A stretch of 64,000 bases of DNA from Candidatus Babelota bacterium (GTDB taxonomy: Bacteria > Babelota > Babeliae > Babelales > Vermiphilaceae), in contig JBMOLF010000015.1 in NCBI GenBank assembly GCA_049325595.1, positions 64,001 to 128,000 of the forward strand, written 5' to 3'. This document shows, piece by piece, positions 3,751-50,738 of the stretch (positions are counted from its first letter, which is position 1; the number at the start of each line of letters is the position of its first letter). Under the pieces are notes generated by a model. The model saw only the letters and a program-made list of their open reading frames with translations, ran no database searches and was not told the origin of the DNA. The position numbers and the translations under genes are program-made.

Positions 3751-3780
3751 AGGAGCCTTTCTTTTTAAAGAATATGTCTA

Positions 3781-5679
3781 TTAATTGAATGACACTCCTC
3801 CTTTAAACCAAATACCCCATTCTGATAATGCTGATTGCTGGCATTTGCAACTGTCACATTCAAGAGTGCATGGATTAGTGTGCTGTGCAAATTCTACTTT
3901 GGCACCTGCACCAATATAAGGGATCCATTCACACCAGTGCGGCCCCCAGGCATACGAAACATGGGTGAAGAATTTATGTGATAATCCTTTGGTGCGTGCT
4001 GAAAATAAATCAATATCAGAGTTAGCGATAAAAATAGGCTCTTGAGATGTTTTGGTTTGTAATCCGGTGACTAAATCATTAATGTCTGCGCCAGCAGTAT
4101 TATCTTCTAAAAAGCGGGCAAATTTAGAATTATCTACACCCGGATTTCGGGTTGGTTGAATGCCATCGATACCACCATCTAAAGGATTTGGTCCGACAAA
4201 ATTATTTCTACCGGTATGAATAGTTGCCGTATCTTGTGTTGCTGATAGCGGAATAGGTTGATTGGCGGTTATAGGGTCGATAGTATTTGCAGCAAATCCA
4301 TACACAAATGAATCACCTTTGAGTGCCCATATTCTGTTGCCATCTAGAGGAGCTGGGCATGTACAGGTATAGCGTAATTTTTCACAACTTCTTGTCCAGA
4401 AGTTGTATCCCATATCCCATCCCCACCCACAATTGGTATAATTAAATAATAAAACAAGATCAAATTGAGCAGCAATACGTGATTCAACATCAAAAGTGGT
4501 TAAATTAGCAACGGAGGTAAACACATTTTGAAATTGTGCTATTGGAGCCACGCTATTTGATACGTCGCCTGGGTCAGTATTGGCAAAAAGGTTATACACC
4601 GGCACACCAAGCATACTTGCTAAAGCATAACGGCTGTTTGGACGATCGATCAAATCAAATGAGCGGCGTTGACGTGCACTAAATAAATGTGTGAGATTAA
4701 AATCAAAATACATGCCGCATGATTGTTGACTGTTTTTACTACGCCAGAACGTGTAATGACTAGTAAAACCAAATCCTAATTCCCAATGGTGACCATTTCC
4801 TACAAGAGGTTCAAATAAGTATTCGCCGGTAGGGCGGTTTCCTGTAGGAGCAGCTCCGCGTAAATTTAAGCCAATATGATAATCATCCGATTGGGCAAAA
4901 TTCCATCCCAGTGCACCTTGTACATCGGACAAGGTAGTTTTATTGCGTGTTCTGCGATATAATCGAGCATTTTTTAATGATTCAAATGTAACTAAACATC
5001 CTAAATTGGGCGTTGCACAACCGGTTAAAAAATCTGTTGCTGATTCCACTAACTGTGCGCGATCAACACCTGCTGTGCTTTCATTAAAATAACCAGGCAA
5101 ATAAGCTGAGCTACCACGATCAATAACTTTTTCACAAAAATTAAGATCCCACCGAGTATGAACTATGGGCGCATGGAAACGTAAATAAAGACCTTCAACC
5201 CATTCATCAAGCCCTAAATAAAAACTCAGATCAATCATTAAATTGGTAATGCGGGGTTCAAATGTTAAAATACTTTGATAATCAGTCGGTAAGCCAAAAT
5301 AATCTGCAAGCCAATCAGTGCAACCACGATTAGGAACTAGGCTACCTGAGACTTTAATAAATCCACAACGAGTATCATCTTTGCAGAGCTGGCAATCAAT
5401 ATCTGAAGTTGATAATAAATCTACACCAAACAAAGTTTGTGCAATATCACATGATTTAAAAGAACGTGTGTACTCGGGTGTAAAACCAATAACACCGTAT
5501 ACACGACACATATCATATAAATTAATAAGTTGTGTCCATCCAACTAAATCACGCGCTGCATCTTCACTTTGAGAGCGTGGATAAAAAAATGGCGTAACAC
5601 CAAAAACAGAAGAGCTAACTATACTGGTAAATGAAATAACATATAATAATTTTTTAGTAAGGCGATGCATAATACCCAC
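3781..5679 (-). CDS. Cys-rich probable outer-membrane beta-barrel protein, paralog 3
   Basis: Same family motifs (WLADYFGLPTD, FEPLVGNGHHWE, WALKGD); ends EWGIWFKGGVSFN. Confidence 0.6.
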   Translation of the reverse strand: MGIMHRLTKKLLYVISFTSIVSSSVFGVTPFFYPRSQSEDAARDLVGWTQLINLYDMCRVYGVIGFTPEYTRSFKSCDIAQTLFGVDLLSTSDIDCQLCKDDTRCGFIKVSGSLVPNRGCTDWLADYFGLPTDYQSILTFEPRITNLMIDLSFYLGLDEWVEGLYLRFHAPIVHTRWDLNFCEKVIDRGSSAYLPGYFNESTAGVDRAQLVESATDFLTGCATPNLGCLVTFESLKNARLYRRTRNKTTLSDVQGALGWNFAQSDDYHIGLNLRGAAPTGNRPTGEYLFEPLVGNGHHWELGFGFTSHYTFWRSKNSQQSCGMYFDFNLTHLFSARQRRSFDLIDRPNSRYALASMLGVPVYNLFANTDPGDVSNSVAPIAQFQNVFTSVANLTTFDVESRIAAQFDLVLLFNYTNCGWGWDMGYNFWTRSCEKLRYTCTCPAPLDGNRIWALKGDSFVYGFAANTIDPITANQPIPLSATQDTATIHTGRNNFVGPNPLDGGIDGIQPTRNPGVDNSKFARFLEDNTAGADINDLVTGLQTKTSQEPIFIANSDIDLFSARTKGLSHKFFTHVSYAWGPHWCEWIPYIGAGAKVEFAQHTNPCTLECDSCKCQQSALSEWGIWFKGGVSFN

Positions 5680-5706
5680 TCCTTGATTGCAATAGTTGTT
5701 TTAAAA

Positions 5707-5736
5707 ACTGTAACACGGCGCGTTTTATTGCTTCAA
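5707..5736 (-). promoter_or_regulatory. Putative sigma70-type promoter for paralog 3
   Basis: Minus strand TTGAAG-18 nt-TACAGT with TGn extension; same layout as 7811-7840. Confidence 0.45.
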
Positions 5737-5746
5737 GAAAAGAAGT

Positions 5747-5776
5747 AAAAAGGCCCGGTCTTTATGACCAGGCCTT
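5747..5776 (-). terminator. Intrinsic terminator after paralog 2
   Basis: aaggcc(c)ggtc...gacc(a)ggcctt stem followed by a T-run on the minus strand. Confidence 0.7.
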
Positions 5777-5799
5777 GTTGGTTTACTAATTGCTGTTGA

Positions 5800-7764
5800 T
5801 TAATAATCAAAAGCAAAGCCACCTTTGAGCCAAATACCCCATTCAGACAAGTTGCATGTTTTGCAGCATGTTTGAGTATTAGGATTTACATTAATGTTAG
5901 CAGTTGATACGCAGTCGCTTACGCAGCATCCAGTATCACATGAGGTATCGTTAGTGCAGCAGCTTGAACCACGTTTGTGTGCAAATTCTGCTTTACCACC
6001 AATTCCTAAGAATGGAGTCCAGCATTCAAAGCAATCATTCCATGTATAGCTCAAATGAGCAAATACTTTGCTTGATAAACCACGGCTGCGAGCAGCAACT
6101 AAGTCTACATCTTCATTGCGTAAGAAGATTGGATCATTAGATGTTCTGGTTTGAATTAAATCAGCAGGAGAAATATCAAGATTATTACCAAGACCAGTTG
6201 CTCCAGCAGTAAAACGTGCAAATTGTGGATTATCAATACCAGGATTTGCGCGATCAGTGATCACAAAATCATTACCTGGAGTTGTATTGGTACCCGAATT
6301 GATTGTTGCTTGACTTTCTGTTGCAGATAACGCTACTGGTAATCCACTGCTACGTCGGAAGCCATATACACTGGCATCACCTTTAAGTGCCCAGTTTCGA
6401 GTAGCAAATTCAGTTTGGTCATCACAGCAAGCAAAGCGGATTTTCTCGCAGCTTCTACCCCAGAAATTATAACCAATATCAAATGAGAAATCGCATTTGG
6501 TAAAGTTGAACAATGCTACAACATCTGCTTGTATACCACTGCTCACTTTAACATCTAAGGTTGTTAAGTTAGCAACTGGGGTAATTAAGTTTTTAAATTG
6601 TGCAATTGGTGCTTGGCTACCAGCAACATCACCCGGTAGTGGGTTTGCAAATAAGGTGTTAACTGGTACATCAAGGCGTTCTGCAAGCATATAACGGCTA
6701 TTTGGTCTACCTACTAAATCAAATGAGCGTAATTGGCGTGTTCTGAATAAGTGAGTAATTTTAGCATCAACATAAATTCCCCAGCTTGCATCATTACATG
6801 CGTTGCGCCAGAAAGTCCAGTGTGATGTTAAAATACCACCAAATTCCCAGTGTTTACCATTACCTACGATTGGTTCAAATAACCATTCACTTTGTGGACG
6901 ACGGCCAGTCGGTGCAGCAACACGAGCAGCAATACCAAAATGATAATCTTCATCTTGCGCAAAGTTGTAACCAAGATCAAAACGAACTTCAGCTACTCCA
7001 TTGTCTGTTAATGAACACTTAGAAAATTTTGAATTTTTAAGCGGCTCTACAAAAACATTTTGATTTGATTGGGCTAAGTTTTGGAAAAAAAGACCTCTGC
7101 CGCCGGATGCATATTCAGTAAATTCATAACGTAATTGGGTGCGTGGCACTGCTACTGCAGCAAAATAACCAGCATCATAACCATTAACGCCTTCTGCAGT
7201 AACCGTTTCGCAATAGTCTAAATCCCATTTTGTATGTACAAAAGGAACATCAATACGTGCCCATAATCCGCACGCTAAACCGTCAAGTCCAAGATACAAA
7301 TTAAAGTCAGCAATTGCATTGCTTACTTTTGGTTTAAAACACACAGTGCTTTCAAAATCGGTTGGTAATCCAAAATAATCAGCTAACCAATCAGTTGCTG
7401 CACGGCCAGCTACGCGGCTACCAGAAATTTTAATGCAATGATCGTTATCGCATTCATTGCAAGAAGTAGTGCATGTTGTTGGACAATTTGTAGGGCATGT
7501 ATTGCAGGTATCAAATGGTCCAAAAAGACAATCGAAAATTCTACCTGGTCTGAATGAACGTGTTCCTTCAAGAGTTAACGCAGCAACCCCATAGAAGCAG
7601 TCTTTGCCAAATAAGTTTATAAGATGTGTTTCTCCGACTAATTCTCGTGCCGCATCTACGCCTTGAGAGCGAATGCTAAAATAGGGTAAGGCACCATCCA
7701 TGTTGCTGCTTATACCCACCATAATGGCTAGGCTAAGCAATGGTTTAAGGTGTGATCGCATCAT
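5800..7764 (-). CDS. Cys-rich probable outer-membrane beta-barrel protein, paralog 2
   Basis: Same family motifs; Cys/Thr/Asn-rich inserts (CNTCPTNCPTTCTTSCNEC); ends EWGIWLKGGFAFDY. Confidence 0.6.
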   Translation of the reverse strand: MMRSHLKPLLSLAIMVGISSNMDGALPYFSIRSQGVDAARELVGETHLINLFGKDCFYGVAALTLEGTRSFRPGRIFDCLFGPFDTCNTCPTNCPTTCTTSCNECDNDHCIKISGSRVAGRAATDWLADYFGLPTDFESTVCFKPKVSNAIADFNLYLGLDGLACGLWARIDVPFVHTKWDLDYCETVTAEGVNGYDAGYFAAVAVPRTQLRYEFTEYASGGRGLFFQNLAQSNQNVFVEPLKNSKFSKCSLTDNGVAEVRFDLGYNFAQDEDYHFGIAARVAAPTGRRPQSEWLFEPIVGNGKHWEFGGILTSHWTFWRNACNDASWGIYVDAKITHLFRTRQLRSFDLVGRPNSRYMLAERLDVPVNTLFANPLPGDVAGSQAPIAQFKNLITPVANLTTLDVKVSSGIQADVVALFNFTKCDFSFDIGYNFWGRSCEKIRFACCDDQTEFATRNWALKGDASVYGFRRSSGLPVALSATESQATINSGTNTTPGNDFVITDRANPGIDNPQFARFTAGATGLGNNLDISPADLIQTRTSNDPIFLRNEDVDLVAARSRGLSSKVFAHLSYTWNDCFECWTPFLGIGGKAEFAHKRGSSCCTNDTSCDTGCCVSDCVSTANINVNPNTQTCCKTCNLSEWGIWLKGGFAFDY

Positions 7765-7810
7765 AGGCTACTCCTTTTTTTTGGATAGGGGTTGTATGCA
7801 ATTTTTCAGT

Positions 7811-7840
7811 ACTCTAACATAGACGGTAGCTCTGTTTCAA
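7811..7840 (-). promoter_or_regulatory. Putative sigma70-type promoter for paralog 2
   Basis: Minus strand TTGAAA-18 nt-TAGAGT with TGn extension. Confidence 0.45.
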
Positions 7841-7877
7841 GAAAATAGCGATCAATCTTTTATAATGAGGCTATTAC

Positions 7878-7911
7878 AAAAAACAAGAGCTCGGTATTAT
7901 CCGAGCTCTTG
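7878..7911 (-). terminator. Intrinsic terminator after paralog 1
   Basis: Perfect 11-bp stem caagagctcgg/ccgagctcttg followed by T6 on the minus strand. Confidence 0.8.
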
Positions 7912-7952
7912 CTGTACTAGTTTTGTTTGCATTGATTTTTACAAACTAAACC

Positions 7953-9953
7953 TTAGTTAAAGGAGATACCCCCTTTAAGCCATACACCCCATTGAGAGAT
8001 GTTGGTAATGTTGCAACCATTGCAGCAGTCGTTGCATACGGTATTGCAACCAGTGCCGGTGAAGCAATTGTTGGTTGTGCAAGCATTAGTAAAGCAGGTA
8101 TTAGTTGTGCATGAAGTGTTGCAAGCGGTATTGCAAGAAGTATTGCAAGGGTTGCAGAAGTCATTGCAGAAATCATCGCAGCAGTCATTATTTCTTCTGT
8201 TATGTGCAAATTCAACTTTACCACCTACGCCCAAGAATGGTATCCAACACTCAGATTCACACCAGGTGTAGCTGAAATGAGCAAATATTGAGCTTGAAAG
8301 ACCTCTAGTACGTGCAGCGCAATAATCAATATCATTAAGGCTTAAGAATACAGGCTCTAATGAGGTATTGGTTTGAGCTAAGTTAGCACCAGTTACGTTT
8401 GGAATAGCTTGAATTTGTGCATTAAGAGCAGATGTGCTTGCCCAAGCTAACTCAGGATTGTCAATACGAGGATTTTGTAAGTTAGAACCAGTGAATGATC
8501 CAGTGCATGGTGTATTGGTACCTGCGTTAATTGTTGCATTGCTTTCAGTAGCAGATAATGCTACAGCAGTGTTAGGGTTAGTTGATGAGTCACTACGGGT
8601 GAAACCAAATACTTGTGCGTCACCTTTAAGTGCCCATGTTCTTGCAGCAAATGGCAATCCGCAATCACAGTCACGTTCAATTTTCTCACAGCTTCTGCCC
8701 CAGAATTCATAACCTAAGTCAAATGAGAAGCCACAGTGTGTATAGTTGAATAATGCTAATACGTCTGCTTGTACTGCGCTACGAACTTTAACATCTAAGG
8801 TTGTTAAGTTAGCAACAGTGGTAAATTCGTTTTTGAATTGTGCAACAGGAGCTACTGCATCAGCTTGTACTGGGCCAGCGAACAAGTTGTTAACTGGGGT
8901 TCCAAGTCTTTCAGCAAGCATATAACGGCTGTTTGCGCCGCGACCACAAAGGTCAAATGCACGACGTTGACGCGCTTTGAACAAGGTGGTGATATTTGCT
9001 TCAACCCAGAAACTTAAGTTAGCATCATCACAGTCACTTCTCCAGAAGGTCCAGTGAGTTGTTAATTGACCACCAAGCTCCCATTGTTTACCGTTACCTA
9101 CGATAGGCTCAAACAAGATATCACCTTCTGGACGAGTACCTGTTGGAGCTGCAGCGCGGATGCCAAGACCAAAGTGATAGTTTTCACCTTGTAAGAAATC
9201 CCATCCTAAAATTGCACGTAATTCAGCAACACCAGCTTTATGATGGCTACAGAATGAAATTACGGAATTTCTGATTGGATTGAAGGTAACACCAGGAAGA
9301 TTTGGTGTACGGCCATTCATGAAATCAGTGAAGCTGCAAAGCAAGTTAGAACGTGGAACGGTATTTTCACCAGTAAGACCTGCACCAGCAACTACTGTTG
9401 GGGTGAAGTAACCAGCGTCATAACCATTTACACCAGCGTTGATAACGTTTTCACATGCTCTTAAATTCCAACGTGTATAAACAACTGGTAATTTAAGTTC
9501 AAAGTATAAACCGCAGAGCCATTCATTTAATCCTAAGTAGAGATTGAAATCTACTAAGAAGTTAGAAATGCGAGGTCTGAAACTTACGGTGCTTTGGAAA
9601 TCGGTTGGTAAACCAAAGTAGTCAGCAAGCCAATCGCAGCAGTTTCTACCAGCTACGCGGCTACCACTGATTCCAATTGAGGTGCAATCTGAATTGCAGC
9701 TGCTATTGATGGAAGGCCCAAAAAGGGTTTCAGCTATACGGCTTGATCTGAATGAACGAGTAAATTCTGGGATGATTGCAAAGCTGCCGTAAAAGCCATC
9801 TTTGTCATATAAATGTGTATGATTTGTCCAACCAACTAATTCACGAGCGGCATCGATACCTTGTGAACGGATGCTGTAGTAAGGTGCAACTGCTTGTGCG
9901 CCTGTGCTTACCAGAGCGGCAACGCAGAGAAACCCTTTAAGCATTTGTTTCAT
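7953..9953 (-). CDS. Cys-rich probable outer-membrane beta-barrel protein, paralog 1 (possible major envelope protein)
   Basis: Signal peptide, GGAG RBS, family motifs, long C-x3-C repeat tract near the C-terminus, ends QWGVWLKGGISFN; many AAC/TTC/GCT codons suggest high expression. Confidence 0.65.
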   Translation of the reverse strand: MKQMLKGFLCVAALVSTGAQAVAPYYSIRSQGIDAARELVGWTNHTHLYDKDGFYGSFAIIPEFTRSFRSSRIAETLFGPSINSSCNSDCTSIGISGSRVAGRNCCDWLADYFGLPTDFQSTVSFRPRISNFLVDFNLYLGLNEWLCGLYFELKLPVVYTRWNLRACENVINAGVNGYDAGYFTPTVVAGAGLTGENTVPRSNLLCSFTDFMNGRTPNLPGVTFNPIRNSVISFCSHHKAGVAELRAILGWDFLQGENYHFGLGIRAAAPTGTRPEGDILFEPIVGNGKQWELGGQLTTHWTFWRSDCDDANLSFWVEANITTLFKARQRRAFDLCGRGANSRYMLAERLGTPVNNLFAGPVQADAVAPVAQFKNEFTTVANLTTLDVKVRSAVQADVLALFNYTHCGFSFDLGYEFWGRSCEKIERDCDCGLPFAARTWALKGDAQVFGFTRSDSSTNPNTAVALSATESNATINAGTNTPCTGSFTGSNLQNPRIDNPELAWASTSALNAQIQAIPNVTGANLAQTNTSLEPVFLSLNDIDYCAARTRGLSSSIFAHFSYTWCESECWIPFLGVGGKVEFAHNRRNNDCCDDFCNDFCNPCNTSCNTACNTSCTTNTCFTNACTTNNCFTGTGCNTVCNDCCNGCNITNISQWGVWLKGGISFN

Positions 9954-20303: not shown

Positions 20304-21206
20304 GAGCCTATCCGGAAATTAAATTTTTCTAAGAACAATGATCTGGCAAGCAAATTGAAGTAGAGCTAGATGATTGTTTGCTAACTTATCCCATCGTATT
20401 AAAAGTCGCCTGAATCGAGTTATCCAAGAAAAAGTGCGTTCAACGCCCCATCGAAATTTAAGGTTAACTTTTTGAGAAATTTGATTTCTGCGCTTGTTGC
20501 AACTAATTCTGAAAGAGTACCCTCGACTTGCCAAATATTTTCGAATAAAAGATGCATCGAATGCTGCGTCTAGTTCAATGGTTTTGAATGGTAATATTCG
20601 ACTATAAATTTGATTGGCAATTGTTGAAATAAATGTTTTTGAATCATGCGTATTACCAGCAAAAAGATTTATTGCCAACGGAATGCCATTTTTATCAATT
20701 AAAAGAGCTTTTTTTGTTCCTAACTTCCTCCGATCAACTGGACTTAAGCCTGTTTCTTGGCCACCAAGCGGAGCTTTTGCATGACTGCAATCAAAGGATT
20801 GATTTTGCAAATTAAGCCCTATAAATCGATCATATTTTTCAAGAGCATGATGCCATGCTTGTGCAAAAAAATCAGTTTTTACTAGTCTTTGAAAGTGCTC
20901 ATGAATTGTTGATGAAGGACCAAAACATTTTGGTAAAGCGTTCCATTGACAGCCAGTTTTCAATAGATAAAATATGCCTTGTAAAATTGCTAATGGCTCA
21001 CTTTTAGGCCTGCCTTTTTTAATTTTTTGTGGCATAAATTTTAAAAGATGTAATACTTGTTCATCATTCATCAAAAACTTTTTTGATATGCATGTTGCAA
21101 AGCATGTATTCATAAAATCCTCTCTTCTTTTTTTTCATCGGAAATTTAGAGAGGATTTTACTTTTTAATACCTATTTTTTCAAATTATGATTTTCCGGAT
21201 AGGCTC
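20304..21206 (-). mobile_element. IS5-family insertion sequence, 903 bp
   Basis: Perfect 15-bp TIRs GAGCCTATCCGGAAA (20304-20318 and 21192-21206); TTA target duplication (20301-20303 and 21207-21209). Confidence 0.93.
20319..21113 (-). CDS. IS5-family DDE transposase
   Basis: GCQWNALP, D...D...RWGVERTFSWITRFRRL motifs. Confidence 0.92.
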   Translation of the reverse strand: MNTCFATCISKKFLMNDEQVLHLLKFMPQKIKKGRPKSEPLAILQGIFYLLKTGCQWNALPKCFGPSSTIHEHFQRLVKTDFFAQAWHHALEKYDRFIGLNLQNQSFDCSHAKAPLGGQETGLSPVDRRKLGTKKALLIDKNGIPLAINLFAGNTHDSKTFISTIANQIYSRILPFKTIELDAAFDASFIRKYLASRGYSFRISCNKRRNQISQKVNLKFRWGVERTFSWITRFRRLLIRWDKLANNHLALLQFACQIIVLRKI

Positions 21207-24139: not shown

Positions 24140-24679
24140 ATGAAAAAACATTTTGTGTGTTTCTTGTACTTAGGATCTATTGTTGCTGGAGAACAAATTG
24201 ATTTGCTCAAGAACTATAATCTGCGAGAGCCATATTATCCATCGTATGTTGATTTAAATCACTATGGGTTTTGTTTACGCGCTGCAAAAGATTTGCCTGC
24301 GGGAACCGTTGTGGCGACGGCAAATTTTGAAGAAAGCAATAATCCTTATATTGCCAATCACTCTGATCCTGAATATAAATATGTTGCATTAGTAGATGTG
24401 AATGCTGAAGGTATTCCAACGTGGGGAAGAATTAGAGGAAAATGGGCATTTTGTAATCATTCCTGTGATCCTAACTGTGATATTAAGCCCGGATGGATTA
24501 TTACCACGAATCGTTTTATACAACAAGGTGATGAACTTACTACTTCTTATGATGCATATATACCAGGTTTTGCATGGCCTGATAATTGGAATTTTTCCTG
24601 TTTATGTCAGACTGCCAACTGCAAGAAATTTATTACTGGGTATCGATTTGATATGATATATCCGCTAGCTCGTCAATAA
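24140..24679 (+). CDS. SET-domain lysine methyltransferase with post-SET cysteines, probably exported
   Basis: GFCLRAAKDL, FCNHSCDPN, ELTTSY, CLCQTANC; signal-like N-terminus. Confidence 0.88.
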   Translation: MKKHFVCFLYLGSIVAGEQIDLLKNYNLREPYYPSYVDLNHYGFCLRAAKDLPAGTVVATANFEESNNPYIANHSDPEYKYVALVDVNAEGIPTWGRIRGKWAFCNHSCDPNCDIKPGWIITTNRFIQQGDELTTSYDAYIPGFAWPDNWNFSCLCQTANCKKFITGYRFDMIYPLARQ

Positions 24680-26551: not shown

Positions 26552-27316
26552 TTACTGAATTCCCAGCTGAGCTTTTACCCGTGCATCGATGTCGTTAATA
26601 ATTTGCATGGCTTCTTCTGGGGAAAGTTGTTGATAGAGCTTTTGCTCTAGAAAATCGATTACTATAGGCATTTTTTCACTGTACTCCGCGGTTACATCTT
26701 GATCCATTATCGCTTTTTGAGCTAGAAATAATAATTCCTTAATATTTTTTAAGCTAAAGATATCAGGATTGTATTTACTTAGTAGCTCTAATACAGGAAC
26801 TGAAATTCCATATTCTACCGCATAAGAATCAAGAGTCCATCCATTGAACTGGCGGTACTTTGGATTATATCCTTTATCGAGCCATTGTTTTAGAGAATTT
26901 AAATCTCCGCTTCGAATATATTCCAAGGCAGTGTTAAATTGTTGATCATTAGTAGAAATTACATTAAAGCTTGCATTTGGGTTTACTTTTTTAAGCCACT
27001 CTTCAGCTAATTTAGTGTTAAGGGCTCGTGCGATTGCAGTTTCAGAGCCAGGAAATTTTGTGAGCAATGAGTTTAGAACACCAAAAAGTATTGTTGTGTT
27101 GTTGGTGATTTGATCATAAAGATCTTTATTTACAAAGCGTATATTTTGTAAATTTGTTATAGCATCTGAAATTGATGGTGCATCTACAACATGCTTTAAA
27201 ATTTCTGTTTTGAGTTCGGGTAATAATTGCTCTAATGGAAATGATGTCTGTTCTTTTTCCATACTAACTAATTGTGTGCTTGCTATGGCTAAAGTGAGTA
27301 ATAAAATTTTTTTCAT
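26552..27316 (-). CDS. Secreted F-box-like protein with a degenerate ankyrin-like region
   Basis: Signal peptide-MEKE; LEQLLPELKTEILKHV; GDLNSLKQWLDKGYNP...GWTLDSYAV. Confidence 0.6.
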   Translation of the reverse strand: MKKILLLTLAIASTQLVSMEKEQTSFPLEQLLPELKTEILKHVVDAPSISDAITNLQNIRFVNKDLYDQITNNTTILFGVLNSLLTKFPGSETAIARALNTKLAEEWLKKVNPNASFNVISTNDQQFNTALEYIRSGDLNSLKQWLDKGYNPKYRQFNGWTLDSYAVEYGISVPVLELLSKYNPDIFSLKNIKELLFLAQKAIMDQDVTAEYSEKMPIVIDFLEQKLYQQLSPEEAMQIINDIDARVKAQLGIQ

Positions 27317-30547: not shown

Positions 30548-31345
30548 ATGAAAAAGAAGATAACGCTTCTTGCATTATTATCAATTCCGTATGCATATGC
30601 GTATGATGTTGATTGTGCCAATATTAAAGAGATGTATGATCGTGCGCAGATGTACATGCAGGCCAATAGACCCGGTTACACATCTCATGCCGTTGAAATG
30701 TTTCAAGCAATTTATGATAAATGTAAAGACAAGTCAAAAGATAAAGAAACATTAGGAAACACGGTTTATCAGATTGGCAGAGCTCATTGGCACGGTTATG
30801 GTGTTGGCAGAAATTATCCTAAAGCATGCAGTTATTTTGATGAATTGATTAGCCAATATGCAGATGTAGCCGACCATAATTTGGTTGGGTATTCTCAAAT
30901 GTTTATTGCAGATGGCGCACGTAATGCTTTGTGTGAAGAACGCAATTGGGCAAAAGCAATAATAATGTATAAAAAAATCATTGCTGATGAAAAATTTACA
31001 AAGGCTGATATTAAAGCATGGGCGCAAGCTCGTTTAGGAGATGCTTATCGCGAAGGTGAAGGAATAGGGCAAGACTATTCAAAAAGTTTTGAGCTCTTTA
31101 ACTCTATTATGAATGATGATAAAAACATTCCTGATAAATCAGTTGTAGCATGGGCAAAGTTTTGGATAGCAGATGCTCATGAACATGCAAAAGGTGTAGA
31201 AAAAGATTTAGATAAAGCACATGCAATGTTCACTGATATTGTTGAAAATTATAAAGAATTGGATCCAATAGCTGTTATTCATGCACAAGATCGATTAAAG
31301 AAAATGGAAGAAGCTGGCTATAAACCGAATGTAAAAAAAGATTAA
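30548..31345 (+). CDS. Secreted Sel1-like repeat protein
   Basis: Signal peptide; repeated A...LG..Y..G.G...D..KA units. Confidence 0.8.
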   Translation: MKKKITLLALLSIPYAYAYDVDCANIKEMYDRAQMYMQANRPGYTSHAVEMFQAIYDKCKDKSKDKETLGNTVYQIGRAHWHGYGVGRNYPKACSYFDELISQYADVADHNLVGYSQMFIADGARNALCEERNWAKAIIMYKKIIADEKFTKADIKAWAQARLGDAYREGEGIGQDYSKSFELFNSIMNDDKNIPDKSVVAWAKFWIADAHEHAKGVEKDLDKAHAMFTDIVENYKELDPIAVIHAQDRLKKMEEAGYKPNVKKD

Positions 31346-34493: not shown

Positions 34494-35046
34494 AGAGGTT
34501 AATTCCTCGCGGCTTGCCGCGGGACAAAAGTCCTTATAAACTGGAGTTATGAGTCGCTACATACATAAAAGTCATAACGTATCAGTACTAATGTATCATA
34601 TAGTTTGTCCCGCGAAATACCGGAAAGCAGTATTTAACGAAGAGATAGATAAAATCTTAAAGTTAGTTTGCTTAGAAATTGAACTGAGATATGAGATAGA
34701 GTTCCTAGAAATAGGAACGGACCGAGATCATGTACATTTTCTTGTGCAATCAGTACCAACGTATAGTCCAACAGAAATAGTAAAGAAAATAAAGAGCATC
34801 ACAGCGAGAGAAATTTTCAAGAGAGCTCCCTATGTTAAAAAAGAATTATGGGGAGGCGAATTTTGGTCGAGTGGATATTATATTAGTACTGTTGGTAAAC
34901 ATGGAAGCGAGAAACGAGTAGCTGCATATGTTAAAAATCAAGGTCAAGAATATAATTTGTTGCACAAACAAGATCCTAAAAAATTCGGACAGATGTTTTT
35001 CCTATAAATAGTTTTGATACCTCGCTGCTTGCTGCGAGGTTATTCA
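34494..35046 (+). mobile_element. IS200/IS605-family element (tnpA only); ends approximate
   Basis: Related subterminal hairpins tcctcgcggcttgccgcggga (34504-34524) and acctcgctgcttgctgcgaggt (35019-35040), the latter followed by TTCA. Confidence 0.8.
34549..35007 (+). CDS. tnpA: IS200-family Y1 HUH transposase
   Basis: YHIVCPAKYR, DHVHFL (HUH), FWSSGYY, YVKNQ. Confidence 0.93.
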   Translation: MSRYIHKSHNVSVLMYHIVCPAKYRKAVFNEEIDKILKLVCLEIELRYEIEFLEIGTDRDHVHFLVQSVPTYSPTEIVKKIKSITAREIFKRAPYVKKELWGGEFWSSGYYISTVGKHGSEKRVAAYVKNQGQEYNLLHKQDPKKFGQMFFL

Positions 35047-35282
35047 TTTAACTCTTTATGCTTAATAACATACAAACGTGCTGCTTTTGATGATGCTTGA
35101 TAACGGTTTATATTTTGCCACGCTTCTTTTTTTGTTTGTGCAGTGTTAATGAGCTGTTTGATAATTTCACCAAATCTAATTTCTTCAGGAAGCGCTTCAA
35201 GTGAACATGGTTTATTTTTTTCCATCGCATAAGAGTGATGAGCTAGAAAAAGAAATGTTAGAAGTAAGACTTTTTTAATCAT
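35040..35282 (-). pseudogene. 5' remnant of a secreted F-box-like gene, truncated at the IS200 right end
   Basis: Signal-AMEKN; LEALPEEIRFGEIIKQLI; the stop codon lies in the IS end. Confidence 0.65.
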
Positions 35283-37193: not shown

Positions 37194-37988
37194 ATGGTTT
37201 ATATTAGTTTTGACTATAATATACGGGAGTTTGCGCTTATGAACCCAACTAAATTATTGTATATGGATGATTTTAACCAACTGTATTGCACGGCCCGCGT
37301 TGAAAGCGTTTTTTCAGAAAATGGCAAAGACATCGTTATTCTTGATCAGACCGTGTTTTATCCACAGGGTGGTGGTCAACCATACGACAAAGGTATTATT
37401 AAATCTAATAATGGCGAATTTGTTGTTGAAGAAGTCCGATTTGGAGAAGGCATGGTAAAACATATTGGCTTTTTTAGACACGGTATGTTTCCCGCATTTG
37501 GCAAGGGGAGGTTTATGCCAGGTGAAATAGTTGAATGTATTGTAGAGCAGGATCGTCGTGTACTTAATACGCGCTTGCATTCTGCTGGTCATTTGATTGA
37601 TTTAGCAGTACAAGAATTAAATTTACCGTGGGTGCCAGCAAAAGGATTCCATTTTCCTGAGGGGCCGTATGTTGAGTATGTAGTGGAATCTACTAACTTT
37701 GATAAAGAAAAAACAAAAGAGGACATTGAGGTTATTTGTAATCGATTAATTAATGAAAATATGCAAACTTCACTCCTCTTTATGAATAAAGAAGATATGA
37801 AATCGGTGTGCAAAAATGTTCCGGCTTTTATTCCTGAGAATAAGCCAGCGCGCGTTGTGATGTATGGCAAAGTTGGTATTCCCTGTGGTGGCACTCATGT
37901 AAAAAATAGTGCTGATATAAAACATATGGGCATACGAAAAATTAAAGTTGAAGGTAATCATGTTAAAGTGGCTTATGAGATAGCCTGA
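37194..37988 (+). CDS. AlaX-type alanyl-tRNA editing protein; start possibly at 37239
   Basis: LDQTVFYPQGGGQPYD, HSAGH, PCGGTHV. Confidence 0.9.
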   Translation: MVYISFDYNIREFALMNPTKLLYMDDFNQLYCTARVESVFSENGKDIVILDQTVFYPQGGGQPYDKGIIKSNNGEFVVEEVRFGEGMVKHIGFFRHGMFPAFGKGRFMPGEIVECIVEQDRRVLNTRLHSAGHLIDLAVQELNLPWVPAKGFHFPEGPYVEYVVESTNFDKEKTKEDIEVICNRLINENMQTSLLFMNKEDMKSVCKNVPAFIPENKPARVVMYGKVGIPCGGTHVKNSADIKHMGIRKIKVEGNHVKVAYEIA

Positions 37989-37997
37989 AGGAAATTA

Positions 37998-38375
37998 ATG
38001 CTTAAAAAAATAATTGTCGTTTTGATAGCGCTCTATAGTGGCACCTATGCAATGGATAATACTATTGAACCCGCAATTGCTGCCCGTGCTCATTGGATAG
38101 GAAATGAAATTGGTTTTGTAATTTTTAGATCAATTATGAATGCTCATGGTCAATCAAAAGGAATACTAAGCGACACAGATAAAAAGCCTTTAGCAGAATT
38201 CGATGATACAACGCAAACAGTAACAACTTATTTTTTACACAATAATAATCAACAGAAGTTTATATTAGAGCAGGATAAATTTATTACCTTTTTAAATGAT
38301 GAAAATCTACTGGAAAAAGCAAAAGCGTATAAAAGATTGCAACGTAATCTTTCGATTAAGTGTACTATTCTTTAA
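37998..38375 (+). CDS. Secreted protein with a C-terminal CaaX box (CTIL)
   Basis: Signal-AMD; ARAHWIGNE; paralog of 38415 and 40206. Confidence 0.7.
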   Translation: MLKKIIVVLIALYSGTYAMDNTIEPAIAARAHWIGNEIGFVIFRSIMNAHGQSKGILSDTDKKPLAEFDDTTQTVTTYFLHNNNQQKFILEQDKFITFLNDENLLEKAKAYKRLQRNLSIKCTIL

Positions 38376-38414
38376 ATAAAAAAATTATTTTATGTAAATT
38401 TAATAAGGAGTTTT

Positions 38415-38816
38415 ATGAAAAGATTTTTACTTACTCTTTTAATGGCAGTTCCTCTTTGCGCAATGGAACAAGAGTTGACTGAACATGAGATTAGCCAAGA
38501 TGATTTAATCGAAGCTCGTATACGTTGGGCGGGTTCTGAATCAAGAATTCGTCAACTTATGTTTGAAGCAAAAAATTATGCTAAAGAAGTACCCTGCCAA
38601 TATATATGTCAAGGCAAAGGGCATATAGCTGATTTTGATGGAAAAAACCAAACAGTGATAACTTATATTGCTAAAGATGATAAACAAACGAGTATCGTAC
38701 AAAGCTATGATGATTTTATTGCTTTTATAAATAATCAAGAATTATATGAGAAAGCGCGCGAAAAATATCTTCAATTGCATCCGCCAGTAAACCGTAAGCG
38801 GTGTGCAATTTTATAA
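38415..38816 (+). CDS. Secreted protein with a C-terminal CaaX box (CAIL)
   Basis: Signal-AME; ARIRWAGSE; ends RKRCAIL. Confidence 0.7.
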   Translation: MKRFLLTLLMAVPLCAMEQELTEHEISQDDLIEARIRWAGSESRIRQLMFEAKNYAKEVPCQYICQGKGHIADFDGKNQTVITYIAKDDKQTSIVQSYDDFIAFINNQELYEKAREKYLQLHPPVNRKRCAIL

Positions 38817-38875
38817 GTAATTTAAGATTGTATTTTTAAATAAATGTGCCATACTAGTTGATTATGGAGGTTATT

Positions 38876-40036
38876 ATGGCACAATTATTTTATTCATTTA
38901 TTCTTATTTTTTTATGCATTACTTGTCCAATTAATGCTATGTTTACAGTAGCACGACGAATAGTGCCTTTGATAGCTATTAAATCTGCCCAATCATTACA
39001 GAAAAATTCAATTTTTATTCAAAAAAATACCAAAAATTACAAGCCATTATTTAAAACTGTTCAAGCTGAACAAAATATACCAATGACACAAAATCGCTTG
39101 TACAGTTGGTTTAGTTGGACAAAAACTGATGATCGAAGCAAAAAGGCTGAAGAAAATATTAAAAACCTATTAAAAAATTCACGCAATACATTGCTCAAAA
39201 CCAGTGATACTACTTTTGATGAATTCTTAAAAAACGTTGCTACTATTAATTATCAAAGTGATAAATTGGCTTCTCAAGAACTTGTATTTGAAATTATCAA
39301 AGCTACTGGCTACCAATCTAATAGCATTATAGCGCCCTGGTTTTATAACGATAACGATATTGCGCAAGAATTAATAATGGGTGTTGATCGCCAAAAAAGA
39401 TTAGCACAAGTTTTGCTTAATAAAAAAATTAAGCTTGATAGCATCGTAGTAAATAATCAATCATTGTTATTATACGCAATTAGCCAGCTTAATATTGGCT
39501 TTGTTCAGATGATCATGCAAACAGAGTTTAAACACTCAATTGATGTAGCCACTGCAATTTATTATTTAGCGTCTGAATTTGCCAAATTAGAAGATAAAAA
39601 TAATTGGCTGTGTTCTTATAATACCGCTGGCCTCATAACGCGTGATTATCATCGAGCGCGCGCTTATATTATAAAAATGATGGCGCACATTTTACAGCCA
39701 GAGGAATTACCAAAATTTAATTACAACGGGCCTACTTCTGATAACGTTAGAAAAAGTCAAAATAACCAAAAAAATAATACCGAACAAAAAACAGAAAAAA
39801 AGAGATCAACACCATATAGCATAGATGAGTTTTATCAGTTCGCCTTACAGCATGAACGAGTACCAGAATTAATTTTAGGCATAGAAGCATTAGCAAATCA
39901 GCAAGAAATTAAAAATGCCTATAAAGCATTGATAAGCAAATACCATCCCGATAAATACTTGGATGATGAAAGTAGGCGAAAAGCGACAATAATTACTCAA
40001 ATTATTATCAATGCATACAAACATAAATGTTCATAA
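38876..40036 (+). CDS. Secreted protein with a C-terminal DnaJ domain
   Basis: GGAGG RBS before ATG 38876; ILGI...EIKNAYKALISKYHPDK...IINAY. Confidence 0.75.
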   Translation: MAQLFYSFILIFLCITCPINAMFTVARRIVPLIAIKSAQSLQKNSIFIQKNTKNYKPLFKTVQAEQNIPMTQNRLYSWFSWTKTDDRSKKAEENIKNLLKNSRNTLLKTSDTTFDEFLKNVATINYQSDKLASQELVFEIIKATGYQSNSIIAPWFYNDNDIAQELIMGVDRQKRLAQVLLNKKIKLDSIVVNNQSLLLYAISQLNIGFVQMIMQTEFKHSIDVATAIYYLASEFAKLEDKNNWLCSYNTAGLITRDYHRARAYIIKMMAHILQPEELPKFNYNGPTSDNVRKSQNNQKNNTEQKTEKKRSTPYSIDEFYQFALQHERVPELILGIEALANQQEIKNAYKALISKYHPDKYLDDESRRKATIITQIIINAYKHKCS

Positions 40037-40205
40037 TTGTACATACCCCTGAAATTATTTAATAAAGACATAAATCGGCAAATTACATGCTTAACTTAGT
40101 CTTGCAATTAAAATTTTTATAGAGTAGTAAAATGAGTAAAGTGGTTTAATAGCTAAACTCATTGGACATTGCCCAATCAATCTTTAGTGTATATCTAAAA
40201 AAGGA

Positions 40206-40586
40206 GTGAGTATGAAAAGATTATGGATTGTTTTTGTAATTGTTGCCAATTCTTACGCAATGGAAACTGAATTAGAATATACCCCCAATCAGATTCAATT
40301 GATTACTGCGCGTTTAAGATGGTCTGGCAATGAAGATTTATTTAAGCTTACCAAGCAAGAAGAAAATTGTTTTATCAACTCGCGGATAGATAATGAACAA
40401 CTTGCTTATCTAGATAATAATGCAAAATTTATTACTACTTATTTTAAATATAATGGTAAAACAAAAACAGTTACCCACACGCGTGAAGAACTTAAAAAAT
40501 TTCTTACCGATCGCCAATTGCTCGCCGAAGTTGCCAAATGTAAAACCACTAAAAAGAATCTTGGACGGTTGTGTACTATTCAATAA
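40206..40586 (+). CDS. Secreted protein with a C-terminal CaaX box (CTIQ)
   Basis: Signal-AME; ARLRWSGNE; basic residues before CTIQ. Confidence 0.7.
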   Translation: MSMKRLWIVFVIVANSYAMETELEYTPNQIQLITARLRWSGNEDLFKLTKQEENCFINSRIDNEQLAYLDNNAKFITTYFKYNGKTKTVTHTREELKKFLTDRQLLAEVAKCKTTKKNLGRLCTIQ

Positions 40587-40756: not shown

Positions 40757-41374
40757 ATGTCAATTTTATATGTTGGTACCAAATCTGCATCACGACGTAT
40801 GTTATTAGATCAAGCACAAATTCCTTATACGCTTGTGCAACAAGAAGCAGATGAATCAGTATGTAAATTAAGCGATAATTTACAAGAACGAGTTACTGCA
40901 ATTGCATTACAAAAAATGGATCACGTAATTTTGCCAAAAGGTAAAGATAGCGAACAATGTTTTGTTCTTACCGCTGATACGTTGTCGCAAGATAAAACTG
41001 GCGCCATTTCTGGTAAGCCAGAAAATAGACAAGAAGCAATTTCCATGATTAAAGCAGCACGAGATGGTATGTACACGGGTACTGCATTTTGTTTGGATCG
41101 CAAAATATGGAAAGAAAATAGTTGGCATATTGATGAACGTGTCGTTCAATTTGTAGCCGCTGAATATATTTTTAATATTCCTGATGAATGGATTGAGATA
41201 TATTTTGAAAAATCAATTGCACTCAATGCATCAGGTGCCATTGCAATAGAAGATTTTGGTATGCAATTTTTAAAGATAATCAATGGATCTTATTCAGGTT
41301 TAGTTGGTTTGCCTATGTATGAGCTACGCGAGGCACTTGAGGAATTGAATTTCTTTTCGTTTGTAAAAAAATAA
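40757..41374 (+). CDS. maf: Maf family nucleotide pyrophosphatase
   Basis: SASRRMLL, LTADT, GKP, GLVGLP. Confidence 0.85.
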   Translation: MSILYVGTKSASRRMLLDQAQIPYTLVQQEADESVCKLSDNLQERVTAIALQKMDHVILPKGKDSEQCFVLTADTLSQDKTGAISGKPENRQEAISMIKAARDGMYTGTAFCLDRKIWKENSWHIDERVVQFVAAEYIFNIPDEWIEIYFEKSIALNASGAIAIEDFGMQFLKIINGSYSGLVGLPMYELREALEELNFFSFVKK

Positions 41375-41424
41375 TTTTTGCTATAATGATTCACCAAATA
41401 ATTTTAAAAACTTATGGAGAATTC

Positions 41425-41910
41425 ATGAAAAAAATTTTATTTGTGATGTTCATTATGATTAATAGCATTAGTGCGCATGAAGTCCAGCAAGTAAAAGCTT
41501 CGGGAATAACCTATCCTTTATCCTGCCATGCCGTGCAACGTATGAGAGAAAGGGGAATTAATGCAATTAATTTAAGCAATTTGTTAGCGCATGGTAAATC
41601 GTATGAAAATACCGAAAATACCCAATTAGTTGTTAATACTAATAATGGTTATGGTGCAGTAGTTTCCATAAATGATCGGGTAATAATAACAGTAATGATC
41701 AACATATTTGAAGATAGACTGCAACGAAAATTGCAAAAAGTTAAGCATGCAAATCCAACTATATTAAAGCAAAAAGATATAAAATATTTAAAACACAGTG
41801 CGCTGATTCCATCTACTGAAAAAAGCATGAGAAAAAAACTAAAAAAAAGCACGGATTTATTTTTTGATGATGAAAATTATCAAAAAAAGTTAAGAAACAA
41901 AAGAAAATAA
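41425..41910 (+). CDS. Secreted protein with a DUF4258-like motif and a basic tail
   Basis: GGAG RBS before MKKIL; SCHAVQRMRERGI; Lys/Arg-rich C-terminus. Confidence 0.55.
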   Translation: MKKILFVMFIMINSISAHEVQQVKASGITYPLSCHAVQRMRERGINAINLSNLLAHGKSYENTENTQLVVNTNNGYGAVVSINDRVIITVMINIFEDRLQRKLQKVKHANPTILKQKDIKYLKHSALIPSTEKSMRKKLKKSTDLFFDDENYQKKLRNKRK

Positions 41911-49160: not shown

Positions 49161-50738
49161 TTAGCAGAAAGTTGCTTGGATTATTTTTTGATAATATTCA
49201 GCGCCAACTTTTTTAGTACGTGGTAATTGTGGGTCATTAAAATCTACTTTGAATAATCCATACCGTTTAGAATAAGTTCCCCATTCGTAATTATCTAACA
49301 ATGACCAATAAAAATAACCACGCACATCATGGCCTGCTGAAATAGCACGTGCGAGTGCATATAAATAGCGCTGTAAAAATAACTCACGATGAGATTCGTT
49401 ATCAGTACCAATACCATTTTCAGTTACATAAATTGGTATATTTAATGGCTTTGCAACGTTGTTTGAAATTTCTTCTATCGCACGATAGAGACCTTCACCA
49501 TAAATAGTGTAGCGTTCATTATTTGCCGGAATTTCATTTTTCTCATCGCGCAAGATTGTTTTGCCTTTCATGTAGCCATGGCAATAATAATTAAGGCCGA
49601 TGAAATCAAGGCATTTACCACCATTTTTGATGTACTCATTTACCGGAAATTTCTTATTAACTTTAGTTGGTGTGTATACATGCAATAAGCCGGTTTTTAA
49701 ATAGGTGTAGAATGTACTGTTTACCAACTGATTACCAAAGTAACACAATAAATGATCACCTGGGTGATATAAGCGCCATGGATCTAATTGATAAATATTT
49801 TTTAATACACCAATGCGTGAAGTGTCACCGCCCGGTAATGCTTTTAAAGTGCGATACACTGCAACGTGTGCTTCAAATAAATTATGCATTACGTCGGCCA
49901 TTAATTCCCATTGATCTTTTTTAGCTGGAGGTTTTAAGCCTTGCGTCCAACCCGTTAATGCATATGATTCAGGGGCATTAAAGGTAAGCCATAAGTGAAC
50001 ATAAGAATGTAAGCGTTCAAATACTGTTTTTGCAAAAAATACAAAATGTTCTATGTTTTCTGCTTTTTCCCATCCACCTAAATCGCCAAACCAAATTGGA
50101 TCGGTGTAATGATACAGCGTGATAACGGGTTTAATACCTTTTGCAACCAGTTGTTTGCACACGTCTTCATAATGATCTAAGGCCGTGTAATCGATAACTC
50201 CTGGTTGAGGAACTATTTTGCTCCATTCAACTGAAAATCGATACCCGTTTAATCCAAAATCAGCCATGAGTGCAATGTCTTCAGGATATTTATTCCAGTG
50301 ATCACAGGCAATACCAGCATCAACTATTTTTCCTTGTTGTTCAGGGCTATTAGCATAGGCATACCAATTGTTGTTTGTGCAACCACCTTCAACTTGGTGC
50401 GCAGAAGTACCGCTTCCCCATAACCACATATCATTTTGCGCAGCTAATTTTTGAGCATGATGTTTAAAAAATGTTCCGATAGGTTGATTGTTAATGCGAT
50501 CGGTATGTATAGCTGCCCAATTCCAAGAAATAGTATTTAAATGGTTAGTGACTGCCTTGTATGCATATAAACTTCCTATAGCAGTAGCAGGTAATACTAC
50601 TGCAGCAACTGGATTTTCTTTTGCTTGCTGCCAGGCATTATTAGTAAGGTGAGTAACATATTCCATACCCTGTGCTGGTTGGTGTATAACACCTAATGCA
50701 ACAAGCGATAGTAATAATTTTTTCATCACATAGTTCAT
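49161..50738 (-). CDS. GH1 family protein, exported; acid/base motif reads TFNAP
   Basis: SAHQVEG, YRFSVEWS, GLNYY, VTENG, DNYEW. Confidence 0.9.
   Translation of the reverse strand: MNYVMKKLLLSLVALGVIHQPAQGMEYVTHLTNNAWQQAKENPVAAVVLPATAIGSLYAYKAVTNHLNTISWNWAAIHTDRINNQPIGTFFKHHAQKLAAQNDMWLWGSGTSAHQVEGGCTNNNWYAYANSPEQQGKIVDAGIACDHWNKYPEDIALMADFGLNGYRFSVEWSKIVPQPGVIDYTALDHYEDVCKQLVAKGIKPVITLYHYTDPIWFGDLGGWEKAENIEHFVFFAKTVFERLHSYVHLWLTFNAPESYALTGWTQGLKPPAKKDQWELMADVMHNLFEAHVAVYRTLKALPGGDTSRIGVLKNIYQLDPWRLYHPGDHLLCYFGNQLVNSTFYTYLKTGLLHVYTPTKVNKKFPVNEYIKNGGKCLDFIGLNYYCHGYMKGKTILRDEKNEIPANNERYTIYGEGLYRAIEEISNNVAKPLNIPIYVTENGIGTDNESHRELFLQRYLYALARAISAGHDVRGYFYWSLLDNYEWGTYSKRYGLFKVDFNDPQLPRTKKVGAEYYQKIIQATFC

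Follow-up and report, generated by a model that had tools for sequence, protein, structure and literature searches.

Three paralogous genes with CaaX-type C-termini

The 64,000-nucleotide stretch of DNA analyzed here (positions 64,001 to 128,000 of contig JBMOLF010000015.1, assembly GCA_049325595.1; hereafter, the window) comes from a Candidatus Babelota bacterium of the Dependentiae (TM6), a phylum of protist parasites that is found widely, has hardly any cultured members, and whose host-manipulation proteins are essentially uncharacterised. The assembly comprises 1.29 Mb in 24 contigs, is 95% complete and has a G+C content of ~34%. On the plus strand of the window, between an AlaX-like gene and maf, there are four genes. 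Three of them are paralogs that code for small proteins with a predicted signal peptide, a common domain of ~90 amino acids and a C-terminus that looks like a CaaX box, the eukaryotic prenylation motif (Table 1).

Directly before their stop codons, the three genes read KCTIL (aag tgt act att ctt taa), RKRCAIL (cgt aag cgg tgt gca att tta taa) and RLCTIQ (cgg ttg tgt act att caa taa), which confirms in the DNA what the initial annotation had stated. The boxes CTIL, CAIL and CTIQ all have the features of a CaaX effector, i.e., a Cys at position −4, an aliphatic a2 residue and a permissive X residue. Genes 1 and 2 are preceded by AAGGA(G)-type ribosome-binding sites, and since an AAGGAG is located 7 nt ahead of ATG 40212, this codon is most likely the start of paralog 3. 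One strain that is 2.7% diverged (63-kb contig, run X2) carries all four genes. In comparison with this strain, the ratio of nonsynonymous to synonymous polymorphism (pN/pS) is 0.38 for paralog 1 and 0.24 for paralog 2; both CaaX boxes are unchanged, and an Arg-to-Trp replacement is located at −5 of paralog 2. On the basis of the Shine-Dalgarno sites, the pN/pS values and the intact tails, we conclude that the three open reading frames (ORFs) are real genes. A scan for promoters and terminators gave no better results than shuffled sequences (19 against 23.7 expected and 2 against 1.8, respectively).

Identity to the first sequence is 31% in one alignment (A1) and 30% and 26% in another (A2), that is, ~26–31% overall, and the motif AR-x-R-W-x-G-x-E ... 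A-x-x-D ... TY ... F is common to the three proteins. Each N-terminus consists of a K/R n-region and a hydrophobic stretch followed by YA-MD, CA-ME or YA-ME. The AM(D/E) start that the initial annotation had listed as a shared trait is indeed present in all three; it is, however, a feature of the whole genome and not particular to these genes (see below). Profile searches of the genome with alignments A1 and A3 found only these three family genes; beyond them, all hmmsearch scores with the A3 profile were at E ≥ 0.0045. A search for related loci in a collection of genome contigs, with paralog 1 as the sole query, revealed no relative. A weak A1 match (E 0.045) was ruled out as a fourth paralog, as it contains three internal stop codons.

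The common domain was earlier described as unknown, and this description stands. None of the three proteins matches a Pfam family at E ≤ 0.1, and among the 25 families most matched by 70 family members, only MYND scores, in two members fused to it. No NCBIfam family lies above its cut-off for the core, and the best match of a sequence profile search of the PDB, to an unrelated protein, has an E value of 0.037. An AlphaFold2 model of paralog 1, built from a 70-sequence alignment, has a mean predicted local distance difference test (pLDDT) score of 88.9, with values above 93 for residues 30–120 and above 95 for residues 30–110. After the helix of the signal peptide, the model contains helices 25–33 and 37–50, four antiparallel strands between residues 54 and 91, and helices 92–100 and 102–124, the latter being long and running into the CaaX box. 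The Foldseek comparison suggested by the initial annotation returned no match for the core at E ≤ 1e-3, either against the PDB or against BFVD, and the ESM Atlas gave no usable feature match (template modeling score, TM, at most 0.41). When 48,161 chains were searched with VIA-align, the best neighbour, 9dcr_A of the TelA/TelB type VII chaperones (Z 6.4, root-mean-square deviation 3.3, 74 aligned), as well as YkuJ (2ffg, Z 5.0) and several WWE domains (Z 3.2–4.6), remained below the noise level of the tool, whose typical best Z is 7–8. Pfam WWE (PF02825) does not appear in the list of the 25 families that the 70 members match most often, and 1x4r_A, a PARP14 entry that we take to be the WWE domain of that protein, is a marginal profile match (E 0.56). 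Structure searches with the predicted model thus yielded no clear known fold.

Homologs and their C-terminal tails

A word-index search retrieved nine homologs, all of them metagenomic or from the same genome and all with a Cys at −4. A congeneric genome (G001) has two homologs, ending in LCSIQ and KCTIL, at the same place beside maf and a DUF4258 gene, and a genome from another family of the order (G039) contains a tandem row of homologs ending in CILF, CIIN, CLIS and CNLY. When 16 sequences from metagenomes and three genomes are aligned, no column is free of variation except those of one Trp and of the Cys at −4.

We next defined the family by searching 1.84 billion cluster representatives with a profile (E ≤ 1e-3), which gave 71 hits, each of them a cluster at 50% identity. 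A Cys at −4 is present in 25 of the 71 clusters, compared to 24 of 1365 crude ORFs (1.8%) of the genome under study. Among the last ten residues, Cys is found in 25 clusters at −4, in 10 at −6 and in 0–3 at the other positions. The a2 residue of the CaaX clusters is I (14), L (7), V (3) or F (1), without exception, and X is S (6), Q (4), L (4), M (3), N (2), Y (2), V (2), F (1) or H (1). Orthologs with as little as ~30% identity retain the CaaX box, as do those in the other family of the order. The class of X is retained as well: orthologs at 54–57% identity end in KCTIL, and the group of paralog 3 keeps C-(T/S)-(I/V)-Q (for P0007, the closest cluster of this group, identity over the core columns used for the tree is 52%).

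The hypervariable regions of Ras and Rho proteins combine CaaX with an upstream second signal, either a polybasic run or a palmitoylatable Cys. In 20 of the 25 CaaX clusters, at least two K/R residues at −12 to −5 or an extra Cys at −8 to −5 could act as such signals, and tails such as KKSKKKRCIIS, RCKCVLN, KRKRCYCFLM and KKCCCSLY resemble those of Ras and Rho. The likeness (e.g., of KKSKKKRCIIS, RCKCVLN and KRKRKCCCILN) is limited to the tail, as the proteins are without a GTPase domain: Pfam shows no Ras-type G domain in the three proteins (E ≤ 0.1) or in the top 25 families matched by the 70 members, and the model has the order helix-helix-beta4-helix-helix.

To see how the family is distributed, 261 Dependentiae genomes from 145 genera were surveyed at E ≤ 1e-5, with at most 16 candidates per genome scored. 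The family is present in nine genomes (six genera). At their loci there are 30 distinct ORFs (33 rows minus 3 truncated duplicates), 21 of which have a Cys at −4, with tails such as KRKRKCCCILN, KSKRCCCVLI, KKSKKKRCIIS and KKKKCWCCSLN.

Other members carry other C-termini on the same core. Two (P0029 and P0037) end in a MYND zinc finger (zf-MYND, E 2.8e-9), three (P0024, P0041 and P0056) in a hydrophobic helix resembling a tail anchor, and a clade of three (P0071, P0048 and P0055) in HDEL, KSEL and TIEL; K-rich tails end further family members. In some proteins (P0010 and P0013; also at C5:115000-118100 of genome G073) the core is present in 4–5 tandem copies. A tree for which only the 82 core columns were used has poor resolution (of its 67 inner branches, 7 are starred). 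One starred clade of six members, all with CaaX, includes paralogs 1 and 3; paralog 2 stands apart from them, with P0039 and three members with hydrophobic tails (81% in the Shimodaira-Hasegawa-like approximate likelihood ratio test, SH-aLRT; not starred). The CaaX state changes at least 10 times on this tree, and a single CaaX clade is rejected, the best tree that unites the 26 CaaX rows being worse by 80 log-likelihood units (p 0.006 in the approximately unbiased, AU, test, for a group that was named after the tree had been seen). We therefore conclude that CaaX is a modular tail and not a constant of the family. Judging from the sequences, the pattern is that of one putative binding module with interchangeable eukaryotic address labels.

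Signal peptides followed by Met-Asp/Glu and other genes

Many ORFs of the genome outside the family have the same type of N-terminus. We assigned to a class, designated SP-M[DE], all ORFs with a hydrophobic N-terminus (signal peptide, SP) ending in [A/S/G/C]-M-[D/E], often MEKN. This class includes 83 of 1365 ORFs in the genome under study and 117 of 1431 in G039 (contig C1, 1.42 Mb), and ME is the most enriched dipeptide in residues 15–36 of both (3.6-fold and 3.7-fold, respectively). When the residue preceding M[DE] is left unrestricted, 94 of 107 cases have A, S, G or T at this place, which fits cleavage by signal peptidase directly before Met.

Strict CaaX boxes end 7 of the 83 SP-M[DE] ORFs and 3 of the 1282 others (p = 2.5e-7); if the three paralogs are treated as one, the former number is 5 of 81 (p = 3e-5). 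Canonical CaaX boxes are thus nearly confined to this class. In the last ten residues of the class, Cys is raised only at −4 (8, compared to 0–2 elsewhere). The proteome-wide check for CaaX enrichment among signal-peptide proteins that the initial annotation had called for is thus positive in this class, after a looser rule had given no enrichment (see below). In G039, strict CaaX is found in 6 of 117 SP-M[DE] ORFs and 7 of 1314 others (p = 3e-4). Further CaaX ORFs of the genome are listed in Table 1; one more secretome ORF, ending in CHSQ, has no Pfam family.

A blastp match in G039 is found for only 4 of the 83 SP-M[DE] ORFs, compared to 184 of 549 (34%) other signal-peptide-like and 463 of 733 remaining ORFs. 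The class evolves fast and is almost wholly lineage-specific. In the parts of three Dependentiae genome papers that were covered, no mention of it was found. It is possible, though we put this forward tentatively and with more doubt than belief, that the SP-M[DE] signal peptide marks a dedicated host-targeting system with a large, fast-evolving effector secretome, of which the CaaX proteins are the visible tip. M[DE] would then be a sorting signal into the host cytosol, by analogy with PEXEL of Plasmodium, or a eukaryote-like mature N-terminus; Met followed by Asp, Glu, Asn or Gln is the NatB substrate class. If true, both ends of these proteins would be written in the language of the host. 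The SP-M[DE] class is a less expected observation than the CaaX family and merits a study of its own.

Table 1. Locations of the features described in the text (window positions unless a contig is named)
Feature	Location	Strand	Description
AlaX-like gene	37194–37988
Paralog 1	37998–38375	+	125 aa; ends ...LSIKCTIL; Cys codon 38361–38363; stop 38373–38375
Paralog 1 signal peptide	residues 1–18	+	MLKKIIVVLIALYSGTYA then MD; core domain ~24–108, basic C-terminal helix, CaaX CTIL
Paralog 2	38415–38816	+	133 aa; ends ...NRKRCAIL; Cys codon 38802–38804
Paralog 2 signal peptide		+	MKRFLLTLLMAVPLCA then ME; CaaX CAIL, NRKR directly ahead
J-domain gene, between paralogs 2 and 3	38876–40036 (alternative start 38858)	+	386–392 aa; signal-peptide-like N-terminus, C-terminal J domain
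Paralog 3	40212–40586 (ORF call from GTG 40206, 126 aa)	+	124 aa from ATG 40212; ends ...LGRLCTIQ; Cys codon 40572–40574
Paralog 3 signal peptide		+	MKRLWIVFVIVANSYA then ME; CaaX CTIQ
maf	40757–41374
DUF4258-like gene	41386–41910	+	signal peptide; 3′ of maf
SP-M[DE] example	26552–27316	−	signal peptide then M-[D/E]
SP-M[DE] example	35040–35282	−	signal peptide then M-[D/E]
SP-M[DE] example	49161–50738	−	signal peptide then M-[D/E]
SP-M[DE] example	60383–60877	−	signal peptide then M-[D/E]
SP-M[DE] example	60881–61141	−	signal peptide then M-[D/E]
Other CaaX ORF	C7:82316–83404		ends CIIL; SP-M[DE] start; no Pfam family, no family-profile match
Other CaaX ORF	C9:59385–60074		ends CKCIIL; SP-M[DE] start; no Pfam family, no family-profile match
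Other CaaX ORF	C15:170568–170936		ends KKKKKRRNKICLVI (polyK-CLVI); SP-M[DE] start; no Pfam family, no family-profile match
Other CaaX ORF	C11:2278–2592		ends CTIL; SP-M[DE] start; no Pfam family, no family-profile match
Other CaaX ORF	C22:36143–37264		ends CLLM
SET-domain gene	24140–24679	+
Histone-deacetylase-family gene	63032–63922	−
Sel1/TPR gene	30548–31345	+
Four consecutive large ORFs	2119–9953	−	543–666 aa; no Pfam family
IS4/IS5-type DDE transposase	20319–21113	−
IS200-like Y1 transposase	34549–35007	+

The fourth gene of the locus, located between paralogs 2 and 3, lies outside the CaaX family. It has a GGAGG upstream of ATG 38876, and its J domain (KYHPDKY, with HPD) is matched by Pfam DnaJ (1.1e-8) and by NCBIfam J-domain models. 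The product is a candidate for a secreted protein that mimics an Hsp70 co-chaperone of the host. No J-domain gene was found among ORFs of at least 80 amino acids at the 3.4-kb syntenic locus of G001. The DUF4258-like protein downstream of maf, whose gene is syntenic in G001, has a very basic C-terminal half, KKLKKSTDLFFDDENYQKKLRNKRK. Elsewhere in the window, there are three genes with eukaryote-like or host-interaction domains (SET, histone deacetylase and Sel1/TPR), two transposases in an otherwise reduced genome and four large ORFs in a stretch with a G+C content of 39–42%, compared to ~33% elsewhere.

Proposed host prenylation and its alternatives

The YchF protein of the genome shares a 90%-identity cluster with YchF of Candidatus Dependentiae bacterium Noda2021, which was isolated by infecting Vermamoeba vermiformis and multiplies in that amoeba (PMC8812299). 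The orthologs ending in LCSIQ and KCTIL occur in the genus of this cultured relative. There are also two genes for ATP/ADP (TLC) translocases. Given the close relationship to Noda2021 and the translocases, we conclude that the source organism is an intracellular parasite of eukaryotes. Searches that gave matches in control genomes found neither prenyltransferase subunits (beta, PF00432; alpha, PF01239) nor an Rce1-like protease (PF02517) nor ICMT (PF04140) in this 95%-complete genome; therefore, any processing of the CaaX boxes must be that of the host. The eukaryotic host that the initial annotation had presupposed is thus supported.

Neither FHIPEP nor VirB4, markers of type III and type IV secretion systems, was found in the genome, which encodes two secretins. 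For Babela, parts of PMC4378268 describe type II as the sole secretion system detected and take ankyrin proteins with signal peptides as secreted into the amoeba cytoplasm. Two copies of gspD in all seven TM6 genomes compared are reported in a part of PMC4776705, and signal peptides on 44% of coding sequences of Chromulinavorax in a part of PMC6561590. The genome fits these accounts; a signal peptide on a putative host-directed protein is therefore the norm in the phylum and does not speak against such a role.

One can expect from the CaaX rules that a protein with X = Q is a substrate of farnesyltransferase and a protein with X = L of geranylgeranyltransferase I. As part of the best explanation of our data, the three genes most likely code for small secreted effectors of Dependentiae that form a family not described before, and we consider it probable that these effectors, exported by Sec and type II secretion, are anchored to host membranes by the amoeba's own farnesyl- or geranylgeranyltransferase. 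Signal peptidase would most likely cut just before the conserved Met-Asp/Glu, as the −3/−1 pattern suggests. Export would proceed via Sec and the type II-type secretins, the sole route with markers found, or via vesicles, and the protein would arrive in the amoeba cytosol. There, host farnesyltransferase (CTIQ) or geranylgeranyltransferase I (CTIL and CAIL) would lipidate the Cys at −4, and host Rce1/Ste24 and ICMT would then complete the tail, as expected from established CaaX processing. The isoprenoid and the adjoining basic residues may pin the ~90-aa domain to a host membrane on its cytosolic side, where the core would bind its host target. The tail would be a swappable address label, i.e., CaaX with a polybasic or extra-Cys signal, a tail-anchor helix, an HDEL-type end or a MYND finger on the same core. 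Host prenylation of these tails is well supported in silico. Since prenylation happens only in the host cytosol, this reading implies that Dependentiae proteins exported by Sec and type II secretion reach that compartment. Amoebae can process CaaX boxes, since PMC2916131 reports farnesylation of Legionella AnkB both in mammalian cells and in Dictyostelium.

For Legionella and Salmonella, it is already established that the host prenylates bacterial CaaX effectors; what is new here is the phylum, the domain and a substrate that is of the Sec type rather than injected. In Salmonella SifA, the host attaches a prenyl group to the C-terminal Cys motif, and this motif helps the effector to associate with membranes. 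The same is described for GtgE in a part of PMC13423502. Both differ from the proteins studied here in being type III-delivered effectors of animal pathogens with unrelated folds and functions. Closer parallels are AnkB and Pel of Legionella pneumophila, like the present proteins from an amoeba-infecting bacterium and with a C-terminal eukaryotic CaaX; parts of PMC2916131 and PMC13081727 describe Legionella CaaX effectors as lipidated by host farnesyl- or geranylgeranyltransferase, RCE1 and ICMT and thereby anchored to membranes in Dictyostelium and macrophages. However, these Legionella effectors lack a Sec signal peptide and enter the host by injection through the Dot/Icm type IV system, whereas a cleavable-looking signal peptide and no type IV marker are found here. 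In addition, the two phyla are unrelated, the sequences show no similarity, the core domain is of no known family and CaaX recurs across a whole multi-genome family. A precedent for the swap of address signals is AnkB of L. pneumophila Paris, in which, according to a part of PMC5506055, a di-lysine replaces CaaX; there, a single frameshift in one gene is responsible, in contrast to the repeated changes of state across the family described above.

Several observations weigh against the proposed prenylation and export. The initial annotation had taken retention of CaaX despite strong divergence as an argument for function and had regarded homologs lacking the motif as evidence to the contrary. 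The retention is real among orthologs, but 46 of the 71 homolog clusters are without CaaX; one close homolog ends in CFNP, and in 7 of the 25 CaaX clusters X (N, Y, V or H) is outside the textbook classes of farnesyltransferase and geranylgeranyltransferase I. The core domain yields no functional clue, and the group tested for a single origin was chosen with the tree in view. Genome-wide, a Cys at −4 (24 of 1365 ORFs) is no commoner than at −5 (25; neighbouring positions 14–25). With a first, loose signal-peptide rule that was positive for 640 of 1365 ORFs, there was no enrichment of Cys at −4 (14/640 vs 10/725, p = 0.18) or of strict CaaX (6/640 vs 4/725, p = 0.30). This rule was dropped as over-permissive, and the SP-M[DE] class was used instead. 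The G039 replicate is only partly independent, since the family accounts for at least four of the seven SP-ME ORFs in which Cys stands at −4. Prenylation, secretion and presence in the host cytosol are themselves inferred from sequence, and the weakest link is topology. As a Sec signal peptide leads to the periplasm and Babela was observed within a vacuole (a part of PMC4378268), one or two more membranes would have to be crossed, i.e., the outer membrane and the vacuolar membrane, if present. The new family of host-lipidated effectors that had been proposed has held in those parts that are testable in silico, with the correction that CaaX is an exchangeable tail that only some family members carry.

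These same points of topology, together with the absence of detected type III or type IV markers, speak for an alternative in which the proteins are exported but remain within the bacterial envelope or the lumen of the replication vacuole, and the C-terminal Cys serves a disulfide or thioether bond, metal binding or covalent attachment; the HDEL, KSEL and TIEL ends of some homologs would also have their function in a lumen rather than the cytosol. However, if Cys were needed only in a general way, its fixed place at −4 with I, L, V or F at a2 in 25 of 25 clusters would not be expected, nor would the second signals, polybasic or CxC/CC, that 20 of the 25 carry. Sister members replace CaaX with tail-anchor helices, which follow the same membrane-anchoring logic, and the genome was found to lack Rce1-like, ICMT and prenyltransferase genes. 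To our knowledge, no bacterial system reads a CaaX-type tail. We consider this alternative unlikely.

More improbable still, in our view, is that the CaaX mimicry is true and the proteins are decoys or competitive substrates that would sequester or misplace the host machinery of prenylation or of Ras/Rho trafficking, with a core that matters little. The very small size of the proteins, the several paralogs with different X classes and tails that closely copy Ras/Rho hypervariable regions (KKSKKKRCIIS, RCKCVLN and KKCCCSLY) would all suit decoys. Yet the core is well conserved, has a confidently predicted fold, occurs without CaaX, is repeated four- to fivefold in tandem and is fused to MYND, so that the activity is expected to reside in the core and the tail to be only an address. 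Chance, by which AT-rich ORFs would happen to end in C-x-x-x, with an ending common to the three genes through recent duplication only, finds some room in the flat genome-wide Cys counts but is refuted by paralogs that are merely ~26–31% identical, by the position of paralog 2 in a different part of the tree, by the occurrence of the motif across several genera and families, and by the excess of 25 of 71 clusters over a 1.8% background (binomial probability 1e-25, or 6e-7 for only 10 independent events).

A literature search of main texts found no paper linking Dependentiae to prenylation, and among the papers listed for the phylum and its genera none contains CaaX; the text of PMC6561590 contains neither "prenyl" nor "CaaX", and that of PMC4378268 does not contain "prenyl". 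The connection between CaaX and the SP-M[DE] start provides a simple sequence rule by which candidate effectors can be listed across the phylum. C-termini that follow eukaryotic rules (CaaX, Ras-like signals, tail anchors, HDEL and MYND) are the first concrete and easily testable handle on the destinations of Dependentiae effectors.

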